A stretch of DNA of 41,177 nt from a virus. Its lineage: Duplodnaviria > Heunggongvirae > Uroviricota > Caudoviricetes. The notes beneath the pieces are model-generated. The model was not told the DNA's origin. It ran no database searches and saw only the letters and a program-made list of their open reading frames with translations. Shown in pieces: positions 2,835 to 8,796 of this stretch. The stretch covers positions 1 to 41,177 of IMG/VR virus record IMGVR_UViG_2534681997_000004. The stretch is one strand, 5' to 3'. A program made the position numbers and the translations under genes. The first letter of the stretch is position 1, and every line of letters starts with the position of its first letter.

Positions 2835-5669
2835 TTATGCCTGAGTACGCAGCGCTTCAAGGCGGCGCAGGTCGAAGTCGTTCAGTTCGTCGGTGTAGTC
2901 AGCAGTGATTGGCGCTGGCCATTCACCTGTGTCGAATCCGGTTGCGATATTGCGCATCGCTTTGCGGTACTCGAGCATACCCAGCTCCAGTAGTTCAGCG
3001 GATGCCTCGATGATGGCGATCCAGTGGTAGTTCTCGTCTTTGTTGACGAAAATCCAGAAGAACTGATCCAGCGCTGCGGTTTCGCAGTACATAGCCGCGC
3101 TCAGGTGATAATCACGTTCAATAATTTCCCGGTGTAGCCTGGCGCGCAGGCTTTCCTGCTTAACATTCCACATGCTGATGGTTTTCAGGTCAGCACCGAT
3201 ACGCACGCCGTCTAGGTCGATCTCAAGGTCAGGGCGCACACGAACTTCCAGTCCCGTCTCCTCGTCAAAGCCAAAGTAGCTCACCTCAACGGCGCGGCTC
3301 GGGTGGGTTAGCAGCATGCCTGCGGTCGGGTGTGCCAGCAGGGCCGACTGGATGGCCTGGGCGGTCACCAGCTGCTGGCGCGTCACCAGAATCTTGTCGC
3401 CCGGATTTTCTCGCCAGGCGTCCAGCAGCTCGTCGGCGAATACGGCATCGGGTTTAACCGACTTAATCGCTTGGATCATTTCCGCTTTGCTGCCGGACAC
3501 CTTAAGCGGTGCCGGCTTCTGGGCTTCCTGCTCCACCAGGTCAGGGTTGATGATTGCCAGCTGTTCAAGCAGCGCATCGCGGCTGCCGCTGGTTTTAACC
3601 GGCGCGGGCAGGGTGGCGTTGTACTCTTTGATGCAGGCTTTCATAGCTGCTGCGGTCTGCTTCTGGTCTGGCTCGATGCGCTGGTACTCTGCCGGCAAAG
3701 CCATATAGCTCTGGGCCGTTTCCTCCAGGCTGGCGCCCAGCGGCAGCTGCGCGGGCAGGGTGGCGTTGTGCTCTTCAAGCAGCGCTTTGATATCGTCAGT
3801 GCTCAGCAGTGCCGGCAGGGTGGCGTTGTGCGAATCGATGAACTCGCGCAGGGTGGCGGTGGTAGTAAAAGCATCTTCCGGGATCTCCGGCTCCACGCTG
3901 AACTCTGCCTCAAGGTTTTCAGGCTGCAGCGCCAGGGCGTGAACCAGATTACCCATGTCCAGCACCTTGGAAGGGGCCCGCGGGATAGTTTTGGCGACGT
4001 GGCGCGCGTTGAAGTACATCAGGCTGACCCTGGCATCCTTCACCTGGGTGGAACTGATCCCGTTCGCCGCGTGATAAACGTCATTCGGCACGCCTTCATA
4101 GCGGCCCGGTTCGAAGTACGCCGGGTATTCCGGGACCGGTTGTGAAGGTTGCTCTTCCGGCGCGCTCGCTTTCTCCTCTGATGCTTCGGTGGTCAATTCC
4201 TGCGTAGTGGCGTTCGCCAGCTCCGGCGCCGCGGCGGAGAGCACCTCAGCCGGGTTCAGGGTATCTGTTTGCGGATCAGTTGCATCAGCGCTTTCGCCTG
4301 GTGGTACCGTATCAACAGTTTTGTCTTTCTCTGGCTGAGTCGCTTCCATCTGCACATCGCTGGTGGTCTCCACTACGGTTTCCGGTTTTTCTGCTTCATT
4401 TGAGGGAATATTGATGACCGGGTTAGTATTTCCACTCAACAGGCCATTGATGGAGAACATGCCACCGCCGAGGTTCGCGACCTGCGGCTGAGCTGTTGGT
4501 TCCTCAACCTCTACTTGCGTCTGAACCGCGGACGCGCGCAGGGGCATCAGTTCAGTTGCGGCGTTAAACTCAGCGGTCATGGTCTGGTTAACGAACTCCA
4601 GATGGGCCGCCGGCGTACGATGAATGTTTTCCGGTGCGATCCGTACCAGGTTGAAAATGGCCGCACGGTTTACCGACAGAACGCCAGGCTGGTTACGCAG
4701 AAGGGCGCTCCATGATTTCCAGGGCTCTTCTTTTTTCGCCACGATTTCTTTGGCGCGACGGTGAATGCTGCCCGGGATCTCAAGGTGGTTGAAATCCATC
4801 GGCAGCAGGGCACAGGCGATCTCCAGATCCAGTGTGTCCAGCGTGTGATGCGCACCTTCGCCGCGGTCGGTGACATATCCACCATCGGCATTGGTACCTG
4901 CGTCAGTGCGCTGAACACTACTGATGTGATTACCGGCAGCCCATTCACGCGCCAGGATGCCACGGTCAATGTAATCAGTCGCCGCCCACATTCTGGTGAA
5001 ACGGAGTACCAGCGCGAGTTCGTGACGCTTGTCCTGGCTGAACACTTTGCGAATGGCATCGGTGTAGCGCCACAGGTCTTTGGTGTCGTAACCCTTCACT
5101 TCCGGGCAGTTCTCAGCAGCTAACAGCAAGTTCTGGACGTAACTGTTATCAGTGTCCATCTCCAGCGCGCCGATAGCTTCGTACTCTTCGCGGGTTACGT
5201 GGTGGCGCAGTTCGTCGGCGGTGAACTGGGAAAGCAGTTGCTTACGAAACGGCATCTGCACTACCGGGTAGAGGGTTGAGTCGTCGTCGTGTTCGTCCAG
5301 CGTGATGCCAGCGGTTTCTGGCAGCGTTGACTCAGTAGTTATGTGACTATCAACGGTCTGAGCCGTTTTCTCGTCAGAGTTTTCAGCTGTGACTTTTGGC
5401 AGCCAGGTGCGGTCATCGTTCTGCAGTTCGTAGCGTTTGCACCAGGTGTAATCCACTGCGCCTTCTTCCGGCAGGTCGTCATATACCGGGAAATCGGTGC
5501 GGATTGGTTTGGCATAATCTTTACCGCGGCCAGTTTCTTCAATTCCGGCTTCTTCCAGTGCCACATCGAGTTGGAGATTGGCGCGCGCTACACTTTTCGC
5601 AGTGAACCAAATCACTGCATCTTTCTTGCCAGACTTCTGACTGGCTTTTATCAGATGGAAAAATTCCAT
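2835..5669 (-). CDS. recE: RecE-like exonuclease VIII
   Basis: Long ORF; N-terminus (MEFFHLIKASQKSGKKDAVIWF...FPVYDDLPEEGAVDYTW) resembles RecE; C-terminal nuclease-like domain; start chosen at ATG 5669 preceded by AGAGGA RBS (ORF track extends to 5774 via an alternative start). Confidence 0.65.
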   Translation of the reverse strand: MEFFHLIKASQKSGKKDAVIWFTAKSVARANLQLDVALEEAGIEETGRGKDYAKPIRTDFPVYDDLPEEGAVDYTWCKRYELQNDDRTWLPKVTAENSDEKTAQTVDSHITTESTLPETAGITLDEHDDDSTLYPVVQMPFRKQLLSQFTADELRHHVTREEYEAIGALEMDTDNSYVQNLLLAAENCPEVKGYDTKDLWRYTDAIRKVFSQDKRHELALVLRFTRMWAATDYIDRGILAREWAAGNHISSVQRTDAGTNADGGYVTDRGEGAHHTLDTLDLEIACALLPMDFNHLEIPGSIHRRAKEIVAKKEEPWKSWSALLRNQPGVLSVNRAAIFNLVRIAPENIHRTPAAHLEFVNQTMTAEFNAATELMPLRASAVQTQVEVEEPTAQPQVANLGGGMFSINGLLSGNTNPVINIPSNEAEKPETVVETTSDVQMEATQPEKDKTVDTVPPGESADATDPQTDTLNPAEVLSAAAPELANATTQELTTEASEEKASAPEEQPSQPVPEYPAYFEPGRYEGVPNDVYHAANGISSTQVKDARVSLMYFNARHVAKTIPRAPSKVLDMGNLVHALALQPENLEAEFSVEPEIPEDAFTTTATLREFIDSHNATLPALLSTDDIKALLEEHNATLPAQLPLGASLEETAQSYMALPAEYQRIEPDQKQTAAAMKACIKEYNATLPAPVKTSGSRDALLEQLAIINPDLVEQEAQKPAPLKVSGSKAEMIQAIKSVKPDAVFADELLDAWRENPGDKILVTRQQLVTAQAIQSALLAHPTAGMLLTHPSRAVEVSYFGFDEETGLEVRVRPDLEIDLDGVRIGADLKTISMWNVKQESLRARLHREIIERDYHLSAAMYCETAALDQFFWIFVNKDENYHWIAIIEASAELLELGMLEYRKAMRNIATGFDTGEWPAPITADYTDELNDFDLRRLEALRTQA

Positions 5670-5807
5670 GTGAGATCCTCTTTTTTGAGTGTTAGAATCC
5701 CCGGGCCAGAGATAGCGCCCATTGGATGTTTTTTGGTTTGGTATAAATTCCGGTGTAACTTTGGTCGGTGGCACCGGACGTGAATCCCGCCTTGCGCGGG
5801 GTTTTCG

Positions 5808-6439: not shown

Positions 6440-6469
6440 ATTAAATCACTGGTTTATATACATGTCAAC
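6440..6469 (-). promoter_or_regulatory. Putative leftward early promoter (PL-like) with overlapping operator motif
   Basis: On minus strand TTGACA (6469..6464), 17-nt spacer, TTTAAT (6445..6440); spacer contains TAAATC-ac-TGGTTTAT, a motif that recurs in the repressor/cro intergenic region. Confidence 0.35.
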
Positions 6470-6542
6470 TTAAGGTTAGTGTTAATTGTAAATCTGAGGT
6501 TTATGTGGCTGGGTTTTGTGACACGTCTGCAGAATCGCAGGC

Positions 6543-6569
6543 AAAAAAAATCCCGACGCGTGGTCGGGA
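6543..6569 (-). terminator. Intrinsic terminator ending the repressor-side operon
   Basis: Stem TCCCGAC / GTCGGGA with 5-nt loop; read on the minus strand it is followed by an 8-nt U run. Confidence 0.6.
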
Positions 6570-6642
6570 TGAGAAGGTTCGGGGAAGGCGACAGAGTTAG
6601 TAGCTGAGAGCCTTATAACTCAGGCGTATTGACCAAATCTGA

Positions 6643-7164
6643 CTAAAAGAAGTGCATAAAAGCTTTGTACAGCCCTGTACCAATGGCGATAATCGCAGGG
6701 ACACCTAAGAGAATCGCCAATTTAGCATCAGAGATTTTCTTGTCCACTGTGTCTGATGAGGGCTTTTTGTCTACAGACTCTTTGATACTAGACAGCCTCT
6801 CCAAAACTACAGCCATATTTTTGTCCAGTGAATTCACTGTCGTATCAACTTTTGAAACTGTGTTTTTTATCTCGGCAACATCTTTCTTGATGTGGGCAAC
6901 TTCAACCTCAAGAATAGCCAATCTCTTTTCCATGTCGTCACCTCCATCTTCAGTTGACGTATGAATGATTTCAGTATCATCCATAGCAACTGATGTGACA
7001 ATCCGTTTTTGTTTATCCGAAGCGGCAAAACTACAAGCACCCATAAGGAAGGTTGCTTGGCTCGAAGCTACTGATGAAAACTCTAAGCCTACTGTAGCTC
7101 CGCTATGGTCTGAATATGCAATCAATAACTTCCCTTCACCAAGAGATGATTGAGCCGCATCCAT
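6643..7164 (-). CDS. Hypothetical coiled-coil protein with C-terminal transmembrane helix (candidate exclusion/abortive-infection effector)
   Basis: ATG at 7164 lies 3 nt after the upstream stop (coupled); AT-rich codon usage; heptad-like stretch EKRLAILEVEVAHIKKDVAEIKNTV and C-terminal AKLAILLGVPAIIAIGTGLYKAFMHFF. Confidence 0.55.
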   Translation of the reverse strand: MDAAQSSLGEGKLLIAYSDHSGATVGLEFSSVASSQATFLMGACSFAASDKQKRIVTSVAMDDTEIIHTSTEDGGDDMEKRLAILEVEVAHIKKDVAEIKNTVSKVDTTVNSLDKNMAVVLERLSSIKESVDKKPSSDTVDKKISDAKLAILLGVPAIIAIGTGLYKAFMHFF

Positions 7165-7170
7165 CAATTA

Positions 7171-7452
7171 TTATTCCTCAAACATACTTTTTAAGGATTG
7201 ATAAAAATCATAAGCCTTTTGTTTGCTTAAAGTCACAGACACAACTTTGGTTCGCTGCATGCCCTTGACGACTATATCCGCATTATCCGTACCGATGATC
7301 GGGCTGCTATTCAGGAACACAAAATTGTAAACTTCGTAACCGGCATTTTGTGTGCCGATTGTTACGACACCGTCAGCATTGGTCTCGATGAAATTTTTCG
7401 CTTCGATTACATCATTAAGATGCATAAGTTCGACGGTTGTTTCTTTAGACAC
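7171..7452 (-). CDS. Hypothetical small soluble protein (93 aa), first gene of immunity-region cassette
   Basis: GTG start at 7452 with GGAGGA RBS 5 nt upstream; AT-rich; co-oriented with and directly downstream of the repressor gene. Confidence 0.5.
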   Translation of the reverse strand: MSKETTVELMHLNDVIEAKNFIETNADGVVTIGTQNAGYEVYNFVFLNSSPIIGTDNADIVVKGMQRTKVVSVTLSKQKAYDFYQSLKSMFEE

Positions 7453-7516
7453 CGAATCCTCCAGAAGATATTAAATCTTGAAATATTTTTATTACATGGA
7501 ATTAGATACTACTGGT

Positions 7517-7906
7517 TTAGGTTTGCTCACCTTGCGATCGAATCCGACCCTTCATGTACTTCTCGTACAGCTCATCTAACTCTTTCAGGCGAAGCGCAAA
7601 AATGCGGAGCATGTTCTGCTGCTCTTCTTCCGGTAACTGGCGGTAGAGCTCGAGCAAACGCTGTTCGTCCGGTTTGAGACCGTCTTTCTCCCCAACGTCT
7701 TCACCGAGTAGCCAGGCGACAGAAATACCAACAGCGTCGGCTATGGCCAGTGCCGATTTCTTACTAATCACGCCTTTTTTGAACCAGCCGTTTACGGCCT
7801 GAGGGGTGACTCCAGCTATTCTTGCCATGTCTGCTTTGGTAACGCCGCGATCAGTGATCTCAGTAAGGCGCTCCACCAGAACGAGGTTGGGTTCTTCTTT
7901 TCTCAT
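7517..7906 (-). CDS. Phage repressor, short HTH (XRE/CI-like, RacR-like) without peptidase domain
   Basis: About 129 aa from ATG 7906; HTH region ADMARIAGVTPQAVNGWFKKGVISKKSALAIADAVGISVAWLL; divergent from a Cro-like gene. Confidence 0.7.
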   Translation of the reverse strand: MRKEEPNLVLVERLTEITDRGVTKADMARIAGVTPQAVNGWFKKGVISKKSALAIADAVGISVAWLLGEDVGEKDGLKPDEQRLLELYRQLPEEEQQNMLRIFALRLKELDELYEKYMKGRIRSQGEQT

Positions 7907-8008
7907 ATGGTCATTGTAAATATTTGGTTTATGCACGCAATAAATCCAAAGTTTGCATGAAGTATAAATCTGTGGTTTACTTCTGCTATCAATAAGCAGG
8001 AGAAGCAC
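7907..8008. promoter_or_regulatory. Divergent promoter/operator region (OR-like) between repressor and cro-like gene
   Basis: 102-bp AT-rich intergenic region with TGGTTTAT-N7-ATAAATCC (7925..7947) and ATAAATC-tg-TGGTTTAC (7964..7980) repeats. Confidence 0.5.
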
Positions 8009-8227
8009 ATGTCCGCACTCGATAAAGCAATTAAAGCCGCTGGCTCTGCCAGAAAGCTCAGCATCGCGCTTGGTGTGACGAGTATGTCTGTAAGTCATTG
8101 GAAGAATCGTGACCAAGGGATCGTCCCGCCAAGCTATATCTTCCCGATTTTCAAAATGACAGGCGTAACCCCCCACGAGCTGCGCCCTGATCTCTATCCA
8201 AATCCCACTGACGGATTACCAAAGTAG
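8009..8227 (+). CDS. Cro-like HTH regulator (YdaS-like)
   Basis: 72-aa ORF with AGGAGA RBS, divergent from repressor; HTH ARKLSIALGVTSMSVSHW. Confidence 0.6.
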   Translation: MSALDKAIKAAGSARKLSIALGVTSMSVSHWKNRDQGIVPPSYIFPIFKMTGVTPHELRPDLYPNPTDGLPK

Positions 8228-8238
8228 GAGCACTGACA

Positions 8239-8796
8239 ATGCAAACACTTTCTTTTCAACAGAATAACAGAGCGCCATCAGAGCACCTGAAATTCCAGTA
8301 TCAACACAGTGAGGCTGAAGGCCAGCCGGTCGATCACCGGGCTATCTGTTCTGCCGTCCGCGCCTGGGCGGCGGCAGAGGGCCGCGTGGCGGTCGCTCTG
8401 GCGATTAAAGAGGCTGCCGAACAGGCCGAGCTTGACAGCATTGACATGACCGGCAGCGCCGATGTGTGGAACGTGAAGCTGTTTCGCTGGCTGGACAACC
8501 ACGAGAAATCACCGGCCTACCGGGCGAACGTCGAGCAGCTGGCGCCGGTAATAATTTCGGTTCTGCCGCTGGCGTACCGGGATCGCGTGATTAAGCACGA
8601 CTGCTTTGCGGTTCGTGTCGCCAGGTCGGTGAAAGAAGACGCTGAGGCGATACAGGCTGTCGTCCTCAAAGCCCCCAGACACGAACGGATGAAGGAAATC
8701 AGCGAGAGCATCGTAGCCAAGCTCTACCTGGACGGACCTGATTCTGTGGCGCCCATTATGGCGATGGTTACAACGATGCTGGGTGGTGCGCTATGA
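8239..8796 (+). CDS. Putative CII-position regulator (YdaT-like)
   Basis: 185-aa ORF immediately after the cro-like gene with GGAG RBS; assignment by position and vague family resemblance. Confidence 0.4.
   Translation: MQTLSFQQNNRAPSEHLKFQYQHSEAEGQPVDHRAICSAVRAWAAAEGRVAVALAIKEAAEQAELDSIDMTGSADVWNVKLFRWLDNHEKSPAYRANVEQLAPVIISVLPLAYRDRVIKHDCFAVRVARSVKEDAEAIQAVVLKAPRHERMKEISESIVAKLYLDGPDSVAPIMAMVTTMLGGAL

Follow-up and report, generated by a model that had tools for sequence, protein, structure and literature searches.

What is the role of the two small genes that follow the repressor gene of a Rac/lambda-like Escherichia coli prophage? The prophage is recorded as IMG/VR entry IMGVR_UViG_2534681997_000004, and its whole stretch of 41,177 nucleotides (nt) is called the window here. 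A sequence-only reading of this DNA had proposed that the two genes, which we name A and B, form an exclusion or abortive-infection module in the position that rexAB occupies in phage lambda. Our comparison of the locus with related prophages indicates that the cassette belongs to an uncharacterised, modular, repressor-linked family with two genes and probably three products, which is Rex-like in layout and has no homology to RexAB. We regard the cassette as a lysogen-expressed, horizontally exchanged accessory module that most likely serves abortive infection or exclusion by means of a membrane effector, a reading to which we assign a probability of about 50%.

Position of the cassette in the immunity region

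The unit and its control elements comprise the following features.

7917..7979, no strand: right operator set (OR), with TAAATATTTGGTTTA at 7917-7931, TAAATCCAAAGTTTG at 7941-7955 (1 mismatch) and TAAATCTGTGGTTTA at 7965-7979, at 24-nt spacing
7913..7940, minus strand: putative maintenance promoter, PRM-like (TTGCGT, 16 nt, TACAAT), read from the sequence
7517..7906, minus strand: prophage repressor of 129 amino acids (aa), ATG 7906, with a short DicA/Gifsy-type helix-turn-helix (HTH)
7171..7452, minus strand: gene A, acidic soluble protein of 93 aa, 10.4 kDa, pI 4.9, GTG start
6643..7164, minus strand: gene B, long form, 173 aa, ATG 7164
6543..6570, minus strand: intrinsic terminator, tIMM-like, ATCCCGAC-cacgc-GTCGGGAT followed by T8
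6440..6503, minus strand: left operator/promoter region (OL/PL), with PL (TTGACA 6468-6463, 17 nt, TTTAAT 6445-6440) and operators at 6442-6456 and 6489-6503

Three genes on the minus strand (repressor 7906-7517, A 7452-7171, B 7164-6643) form one unit that the terminator closes. Along this strand, the order runs from the OR/promoter block (7913-7979) through the repressor, an AT-rich spacer of 64 nt, A, B and the terminator to the OL/promoter block (6440-6503). The operator repeat has the form TAAAT-N5-GTTTA, and exact copies occur in the 41 kb only at 6442, 6489, 7917 and 7965. A further copy with 1 mismatch at 7941, between the repressor and cro, completes the 24-nt-spaced triplet at OR; with 1 mismatch allowed throughout, there were 15 matches versus 3.1 expected. 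The repeats at 6442 and 6489 overlap PL, from which transcription would leave the cassette behind and enter kil, ydaE, recE and recT. This gene order was taken from the annotated twin locus (L001), and the Kil-like open reading frame (ORF) downstream of PL matches phrog_294 (E 2e-36). With operators at both blocks, the cassette falls within the immunity region, on the stretch from the repressor to OL/PL, as rexAB do in lambda. The operator mapping thereby confirms the rexAB position put forward by the sequence-only reading, which had also correctly recognised the repressor, the two downstream ORFs on the same strand, the terminator and, beyond it, a leftward early promoter (TTGACA-17-TTTAAT, with overlapping operators); these statements held with small corrections. 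The same layout is present in the annotated immunity region of coliphage HK544, for which the depositors give pRM-cI-c104-c103-Timm-oL/pL-N, with a pair that has a different membrane helix.

How would A and B be transcribed? No terminator between the repressor and A was predicted by the sequence scan, and neither inspection by eye nor a promoter scan gave a convincing separate promoter in the 64-nt spacer. The −35 hexamer of the PRM-like promoter is below the reach of that scan; the operator at 7917-7931 overlaps this promoter, and the maintenance promoter annotated in HK544 has the same geometry. Transcription from it would putatively start at or adjoining the repressor ATG and give a leaderless mRNA, as for lambda cI. 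At the other end, the terminator stem (6570-6550) has 8 bp with five G-C pairs, and the T8 runs to 6543. Sequence and comparison together point to a repressor transcript that spans PRM, A, B and the terminator at 6543-6570, and the only predicted promoters able to read A and B are those making this transcript plus one nested in B, which is described below.

Protein A and evidence for its expression

The start of A at GTG 7452 is preceded by a ribosome-binding site, GGAGGA at 7462-7457, 4 nt before the GTG. The original description of A as a 93-aa soluble protein with these signals was borne out by its homologues, which fall into 19 clusters, belong to the Enterobacterales throughout and, where full-length, are all 93 aa long. 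An Enterobacter homologue begins with ATG at this codon, HK544 with GTG. The PGAP call for A (ATG 7425, 84 aa) is therefore probably too short, since both the 93-aa length and the start position are kept across homologues. Hydropathy analysis found no membrane helix in A. The protein corresponds over its entire length (residues 1-93 of 93) to phrog_12039 (E 1.6e-47), a PHROG of unknown function; it had no PDB sequence-profile match, and its AlphaFold2 model is weak, with a predicted local distance difference test score (pLDDT) of 47.

Evidence at the protein level comes from a homologue. In the Stx1 phage VT1-Sakai of E. coli O157:H7, the pair is ECs2991/ECs2992, as identified through the HK544 annotation notes, and again has a different membrane helix. 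ECs2991, the A homologue (10 kDa), was among 394 proteins identified with iTRAQ isobaric tagging in the uninduced, anaerobic O157:H7 strain 86-24, in cultures that were stationary and anaerobic (PMC3936929). We found that strain 86-24 (H37) carries the A-B pair. Together with the lack of a predicted terminator between the repressor and A, this gives indirect support to production of A in the lysogen, as had been supposed for the cassette.

Protein B, a predicted tail-anchored membrane protein

The B start at ATG 7164 lies 6 nt past the A stop codon (TAA 7173-7171). The earlier description had mixed two versions of this gene: its ATG 7164 stands, while its length of 174 aa and its 3-nt gap belong to TTG 7167. 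B is made up of an N-terminal adaptor (residues 1 to ~73), a DGGDD linker, a coiled coil (78-132), an invariant KKPS and a membrane helix (~147-167). Its eight coiled-coil heptads are uninterrupted, and L/I/V/M make up 94% of their a and d positions (LVVVVMLV at a, MLIIVLVI at d). The single hydrophobic helix has a Kyte-Doolittle value of 1.96 and is followed by only ~6 residues. Heptad count and hydropathy, i.e. one membrane helix and eight heptads in B and no helix in A, thus agree with the coiled coil and single C-terminal helix seen at first reading. Sequence and comparison indicate that B is a tail-anchored inner-membrane protein whose coiled coil would be cytoplasmic. Several residues of the membrane helix (L, V, P, I, T and K) never vary between family members, a conservation that, judged from the sequences, exceeds the need of a simple anchor. 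B matches phrog_12602 (residues 1-147, E 2.7e-54) and phrog_3556 (residues 63-173, E 3.2e-28), both of unknown function. Its AlphaFold2 model is also weak (pLDDT 60), although residues 10-49 of the adaptor form a beta-hairpin and a helix at pLDDT ~70-77.

Nucleotide differences between homologues at 73-83% identity fell mainly on third codon positions, with 50 of 72 for A against its Enterobacter homologue; for the B N-domain, three comparisons gave 24 of 34, 29 of 41 and 30 of 50. This pattern indicates that A and the B N-domain are under purifying selection. Given the third-position changes, the conserved homologues and the detection of one homologue as a protein, A and B are real genes.

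A probable second gene nested inside B

B contains a further set of expression signals.

6973..7001, minus strand: nested sigma-70-like promoter in B (TTGTCA, 17 nt, GATACT), the −10 ending 39 nt before the internal ATG
6931..6945, minus strand: internal Shine-Dalgarno (SD) sequence and start (GGAGG 6945-6941, 7-nt spacer, ATG 6933-6931, which is Met78)
6643..6933, minus strand: predicted B-short, 96 aa, ~10.5 kDa, basic, with coiled coil, KKPS and membrane helix only

Met78 opens the coiled coil and is invariant in the family despite varying flanking residues. Of 24 distinct sequences, 22 have a GGAGG 4-15 nt before the ATG of this Met, the encoded Gly-Gly being written GGA GGN, whereas synonymous recoding with local codon usage gave an expectation of 7.4 and a maximum of 16 in 20,000 simulations. 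Similarly, a nested promoter (at least 9/12 match, 16-18-nt spacer) whose −10 ends 28-42 nt before the ATG was detected in 17 of 27 distinct sequences, compared with 0.8 expected and a maximum of 5 in 20,000 simulations; as both sets of simulations treat related sequences as independent, they overstate the independence of sequences that share kinship. The promoter matches span at least seven unrelated N-terminal peptide contexts. In addition, stand-alone database proteins of 93-99 aa begin exactly at the equivalent of Met78. These data suggest that B probably gives two products, the 173-aa long form and a 96-aa short form with its own promoter and ribosome-binding site. Such an arrangement would be a gene within a gene, in which the linker of the long protein doubles as the ribosome-binding site of the short product. 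The pattern reads like overprinting, in which an upstream extension of the ORF translates an old promoter and SD sequence and the Gly linker is the SD sequence in frame.

A somewhat unlikely alternative is that the nested promoter, SD sequence and ATG are relics, only the long protein being made and the Gly linker and Met being kept for reasons of protein structure. Gly-Gly would be a sensible flexible linker, Met78 sits at a heptad d position, and the promoter hexamers coincide with the conserved peptide motifs IE and PHN; the kinship of the sequences, which the simulations do not take into account, also speaks for it. What it accounts for less well is the size of the GGA-GGN bias (22/24 versus 7.4) and of the hexamer excess (17/27 versus 0.8), the recurrence of the signals in seven or more unrelated peptide contexts, at one constant distance before the ATG, and the separate database entries starting at the Met78 equivalent. 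In four B homologues (loci L008, L041, L042 and L048) whose N-terminal peptides otherwise vary, the conserved IE and PHN/PHT fall on the −35 (TTGAA) and −10 (CATAAT/CATACT) hexamers of the nested promoter. Since these motifs match the hexamer positions, their conservation may itself be driven by the DNA.

The cassette occupies an exchangeable cargo slot

Comparison with sister prophages defined the segment that is exchanged.

6560..7526, no strand: exchanged segment (cargo slot), 41% GC

Homology to prophages that have the same repressor and cro and carry other cargo breaks off on the left at 6559 and, on the right, returns at 7527-7551. Sister prophages sharing repressor, cro, kil and recE have flanks that are 95-99% identical and a different cargo. 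The slot of E. coli ET881 (L002 3545-4948) encodes only one protein, of 467 aa, for which Pfam, NCBIfam and PADLOC gave no match. In E. coli AR_0118 (L003 3126-4953), HicA/HicB share the slot with a second HTH gene, a small YoaK-like membrane protein and a 141-aa protein of no known kind. In phage PHB10 (L004 3772-4898), whose repressor region is 76-87% identical, there are three unknown proteins of 106, 125 and 140 aa. The 3' arm and T-run of the terminator are common to relatives with other cargo. The cassette has a GC content of 41.0% versus 51.9% for the window, which puts it in the lowest 0.4% of all 810-nt windows as the most AT-rich stretch, in accordance with its description as visibly AT-rich. 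The sequence-only reading had taken this composition to suggest separate acquisition, and the sharp swap boundaries (6559 and 7527-7551) inside near-identical flanks support that idea. By these comparisons, the slot is a cargo hotspot.

The identical unit was found in 13 of 5,426 complete E. coli genomes. In one of these 13 carriers, E. coli KL53, IS3 interrupts B in its 3' part (L071 942-2526; ~window 6800-6850), and the truncated B has 119 aa and lacks KKPS and the membrane helix.

Partner families covary with the adaptor of B

The B homologues fall into two groups, one full-length and one shorter and consisting of the C-terminal module only. A profile of this module retrieved 54 IMG/VR prophage loci, 30 of them non-redundant. 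An upstream partner ORF was present at 27 of the 30, always between −29 and +15 nt from B. Among 18 distinct cases of the next gene upstream, 12 matched HTH_3, 7 also carried Peptidase_S24 and one more was Arc-like. Individual look-ups showed the same gene order behind three repressor types in E. coli and Klebsiella. One true lambda-like prophage has cI(S24)-93aa-183aa followed by N, sieB, cIII, kil and gam. Relatives of the pair occur in 106 of the 5,426 complete E. coli genomes, many of which are O157:H7. In a search of 1.8 billion representatives, only matches of 88-185 aa that covered the membrane helix were used; long multi-stretch coiled-coil matches were treated as compositional noise.

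The partner proteins form six unrelated clusters: 93-aa, 139-187-aa, 87-91-aa, 88-aa, Cys-rich 119-aa and paralogous coiled-coil proteins. The 87-93-aa families (clusters 2, 3 and 4) had suggested kinship by an xNxxxxxAD motif and a C-terminal strand-helix pattern, and were rejected as distant homologues at an hhalign probability of 0.1%. All six clusters map 1:1 onto the types of B N-terminus. On the membrane side, the coiled-coil core is joined to at least five membrane-helix types, and the same adaptor occurs with at least four membrane modules; A follows the adaptor type and not the membrane-helix type. The simplest reading of these sequences is that A binds the B adaptor and that modules on the sensor side are swapped independently of those on the membrane side. 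The 1:1 covariation also fits the earlier suggestion of a membrane-acting effector with a partner.

Two loci depart from the common arrangement in that the pair does not adjoin a repressor. One of them, a Rahnella metagenome contig (L013 4284-5528), has a 93-aa and 175-aa pair beside a DUF3024 gene and host transport genes, and could represent the remains of a prophage or an independent copy in the chromosome. Another locus (L051 1022-1761) has a tandem of two tail-anchored coiled-coil paralogues that differ in membrane-helix type; the upstream paralogue begins near the conserved Met, and the neighbouring gene is of the AraC type rather than a phage repressor.

Two other explanations were considered. 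Prophage exclusion genes are commonly small membrane proteins, and HK97 gp15, P22 SieA and T4 Imm provide models for exclusion at the entry step. B could act in the same way, blocking DNA translocation or a host membrane factor without killing the cell. An inner-membrane protein on the immunity transcript would be well placed for this, and its strongly conserved membrane helix would suit the binding of a host membrane protein. However, B is nearly all cytoplasmic, with ~6 residues after the helix, and a variable soluble partner combined with a swappable adaptor resembles a cytoplasmic sensor, which would be superfluous for a block of entry. We therefore consider entry exclusion unlikely.

The other explanation is a toxin-antitoxin-like pair, in which B and B-short would be a membrane toxin, A an antitoxin binding the adaptor, and retention of the prophage the main benefit. 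The gene order (a small soluble protein first, tightly coupled to the second gene), the covariation of A with the adaptor, the HicAB genes in the same slot of a sister prophage and the disruption of B by IS3 in one carrier are all in line with it. On the other hand, A has no recognisable DNA-binding or antitoxin domain, and neither A nor B matched a known toxin-antitoxin family in Pfam, NCBIfam or PDB. As B-short has no adaptor, A could not directly neutralise it. Such a pair is also compatible with abortive infection and hence overlaps with the explanation that we prefer; as a reading in its own right, it seems distinctly unlikely.

Searches for known families and structures

A, B, the C-terminal module and the six partner families had no Pfam, NCBIfam or PADLOC match above the cut-offs. 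Matches below them (SlyX, FlaC, LPP, LmuB and IcmG) were coiled-coil noise, and PDB sequence profiles returned only generic coiled coils for B. With Foldseek against PDB and BFVD, no fold match for the A and B models was obtained; the best E value was 0.2 and the template modelling (TM) scores were at most 0.41 on the query and at most 0.49 on the target, values at which these matches are meaningless. RexA, RexB and SieB (PF14163) were absent among the Pfam matches of the cassette proteins at E<=1. A search on the accessions and PHROG numbers found no paper in the literature library covered. Thus, the comparisons with Pfam, NCBIfam, PADLOC, PDB sequences and known folds bear out the statement that neither protein belongs to a described family, and the profile and structure searches gave no clear homology to known structural or regulatory phage proteins.

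The one echo of a named family was XhlA (phrog_937, E 1.4e-5). The best family member reached E 0.0017 with Pfam XhlA, member P0137 scored 16.4 bits against PF10779, whose cut-off is 34.7, and the B of the window had no XhlA hit; B likewise had no DUF883 match in Pfam. The E. coli proteins ElaB, YqjD and YgaM have a cytoplasmic helical domain of ~100 aa and a C-terminal membrane anchor, and ElaB and YqjD tether ribosomes to the membrane. These likenesses raise the possibility that the cassette regulates its own phage cycle or host physiology, for example lysis timing, induction, the stability of CII (via FtsH/HflKC) or ribosome tethering. The architecture resembles XhlA accessories and the ~100-aa ElaB/YqjD/YgaM proteins, a dual-product design is typical of lysis timing devices, and the A homologue was detected in stationary anaerobic cultures. 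Nevertheless, we find this explanation quite unlikely. The cassette lies outside the lysis genes, its neighbours in all loci examined being the repressor and PL early genes with no holin or endolysin, and the repressor transcript is off in lytic growth. Moreover, sister prophages with the same regulatory genes carry unrelated cargo, which argues that the cassette is not part of the core switch, and the family resemblances themselves are below the Pfam threshold (XhlA) or unmatched (DUF883).

A proposed role in abortive infection

The reading of the cassette as a defence module is favoured by its position in the immunity region, the cargo hotspot, the arms-race-type diversification and the precedent of the Gifsy-1 slot. 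Also in its favour are the retention of this position behind different repressors, the covariation, the nested signals, the signs that the genes are real and, as a weak point, the architectural echo of XhlA. In the mechanism that we propose, A would dock on the adaptor of B-long, and B-long and B-short would co-assemble through the coiled coil and the conserved membrane helix. A product of the infecting phage, sensed via A and the adaptor, might then alter the B assembly, so that the membrane would be permeabilised or depolarised and phage development would halt, as has been suggested for RexA/RexB. How much B-short there is relative to B-long could set the threshold or confer self-immunity, in a manner like that of holin/antiholin pairs or P22 SieB/Esc.

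Several observations weigh against this proposal. With its tail anchor, B presents hardly anything to the periplasm, and one membrane helix makes only a minimal pore former. The models are poor (pLDDT 47 and 60) and without a fold match, and the contact between A and the adaptor is consequently drawn from covariation only; no PADLOC defence family resembles the cassette. The IS3 insertion implies that B is dispensable and possibly costly, and the Rahnella pair and one other locus do not adjoin a repressor. With regard to B-short, there are the assumed independence of the related sequences in the simulations and the overlap of the promoter hexamers with IE and PHN.

A broader version of the abortive-infection reading is offered more tentatively, as a possible case: the cassette may be the first recognised representative of a modular 'rex-position' defence family of the Enterobacterales, with exchangeable sensors (A and its matching adaptor), exchangeable tail-anchored membrane effectors and a nested, separately promoted isoform that tunes or vetoes firing as a self-immunity device of the antiholin or Esc kind. 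In this version, the Gly-rich linker and parts of the adaptor would have arisen when an extension of the upstream ORF overprinted an ancestral promoter and SD sequence. If defensive, the family would be new to PADLOC v2.0 and to the literature searched. It is carried by tractable or medically relevant phages, namely HK544 and the Stx1 prophage of O157:H7 Sakai. For Rex-like coupling of a sensor to a membrane lesion, its approximately six partner/adaptor types and five membrane modules would offer natural swaps. The nested signals for a 96-aa product and the unstudied presence of the pair in HK544 and VT1-Sakai go beyond what had been noted before.

Repressor start and neighbouring features

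The repressor matched HTH_3 (E 1.5e-6) and Phage_CI_repr (E 8.6e-4), as well as the DicA subfamily at E 1.9e-8, under the cut-off of that model, and it has no Peptidase_S24 domain. It faces a YdaS/Cro-like gene (8009-8227), which is followed by a YdaT/CII-like gene (8239-8796). PGAP starts the repressor at GTG 7936 (139 aa) instead of ATG 7906 (129 aa). Because the TTGCGT-16-TACAAT promoter ends at 7913, a leaderless start at ATG 7906 is favoured, and the RefSeq (PGAP) start is probably wrong. Together with that of the 93-aa gene, this call would need correction in the annotation.

No Rfam family was found inside the cassette, where one toxic small RNA (sRNA) model gave a sub-threshold match over the terminator. 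Outside it, a sub-threshold match to isrB, a Salmonella sRNA, lies at 5711-5806 on the plus strand (30.4 bits versus a gathering threshold of 35, E 0.0066); it covers the full model and sits near the recE 5' end, between recE and ydaE. The very long RecE-family ORF at 2835-5774 on the minus strand has 979 aa in the mechanical ORF list versus 944 aa by PGAP in the twin locus, and RecT follows RecE, giving a Rac-type recombination module.

Comparison with known systems

The closest positional precedents are cargo genes of other prophages. Gifsy-1 remAIN and GiPD474, which lie behind the repressor, are proven anti-phage systems; the remAIN genes, whose expression does not depend on induction, are not mitomycin C-inducible (PMC12724215, PMC9879122). 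Both remAIN/GiPD474 of Gifsy-1 and BstA of BTP1 occupy the same slot downstream of the repressor and vary between sister prophages. The proteins themselves are unrelated to A and B; remAIN includes a ParA-like ATPase, and GiPD474 and BstA each consist of one large protein. As relatives, remAIN, GiPD474, HepS and BstA were rejected: they have comparable prophage positions and are unrelated proteins.

In architecture, B-short is similar to XhlA of the Bacillus prophage PBSX, which is small and has an N-terminal coiled coil and a C-terminal membrane helix, and dual-start holin/antiholin genes also make two products in the same frame to control a membrane lesion. However, the matches to XhlA are sub-threshold only, and the cassette would be expressed with the repressor rather than late. 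ElaB, YqjD and YgaM share the size and topology of B-short; unlike the cassette, they are chromosomal stress genes without a partner gene and are not prophage cargo, and B lacks DUF883.

SieB of P22 and lambda is a membrane-associated abortive-infection protein of prophages. In P22, an internal in-frame start yields the shorter Esc, which regulates SieB, and this short product from an internal start resembles the predicted B-short. B differs in having no PF14163 match, and the place of sieB is a different one, on the opposite strand in the region of the PL operon; HK544-type and Sakai prophages carry a sieB of their own in addition to the cassette.

Between the cassette and lambda RexAB, there is no sequence or profile similarity. 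RexA has 279 aa and A only 93 aa, and RexB is polytopic with four helices, whereas B is predicted to be a single-pass, tail-anchored coiled coil. The likeness is one of layout: in both cases, two genes lie directly past the repressor, between it and OL/PL, are co-transcribed (as predicted for the cassette) from the maintenance promoter up to a tIMM-type terminator, and encode one soluble and one inner-membrane product. It extends to the internal promoter, as PLit within rexA serves the membrane component in lambda and its counterpart in the cassette would be the nested promoter at 7001-6973, whose predicted product, unlike in RexAB, is a shorter isoform of the same frame.

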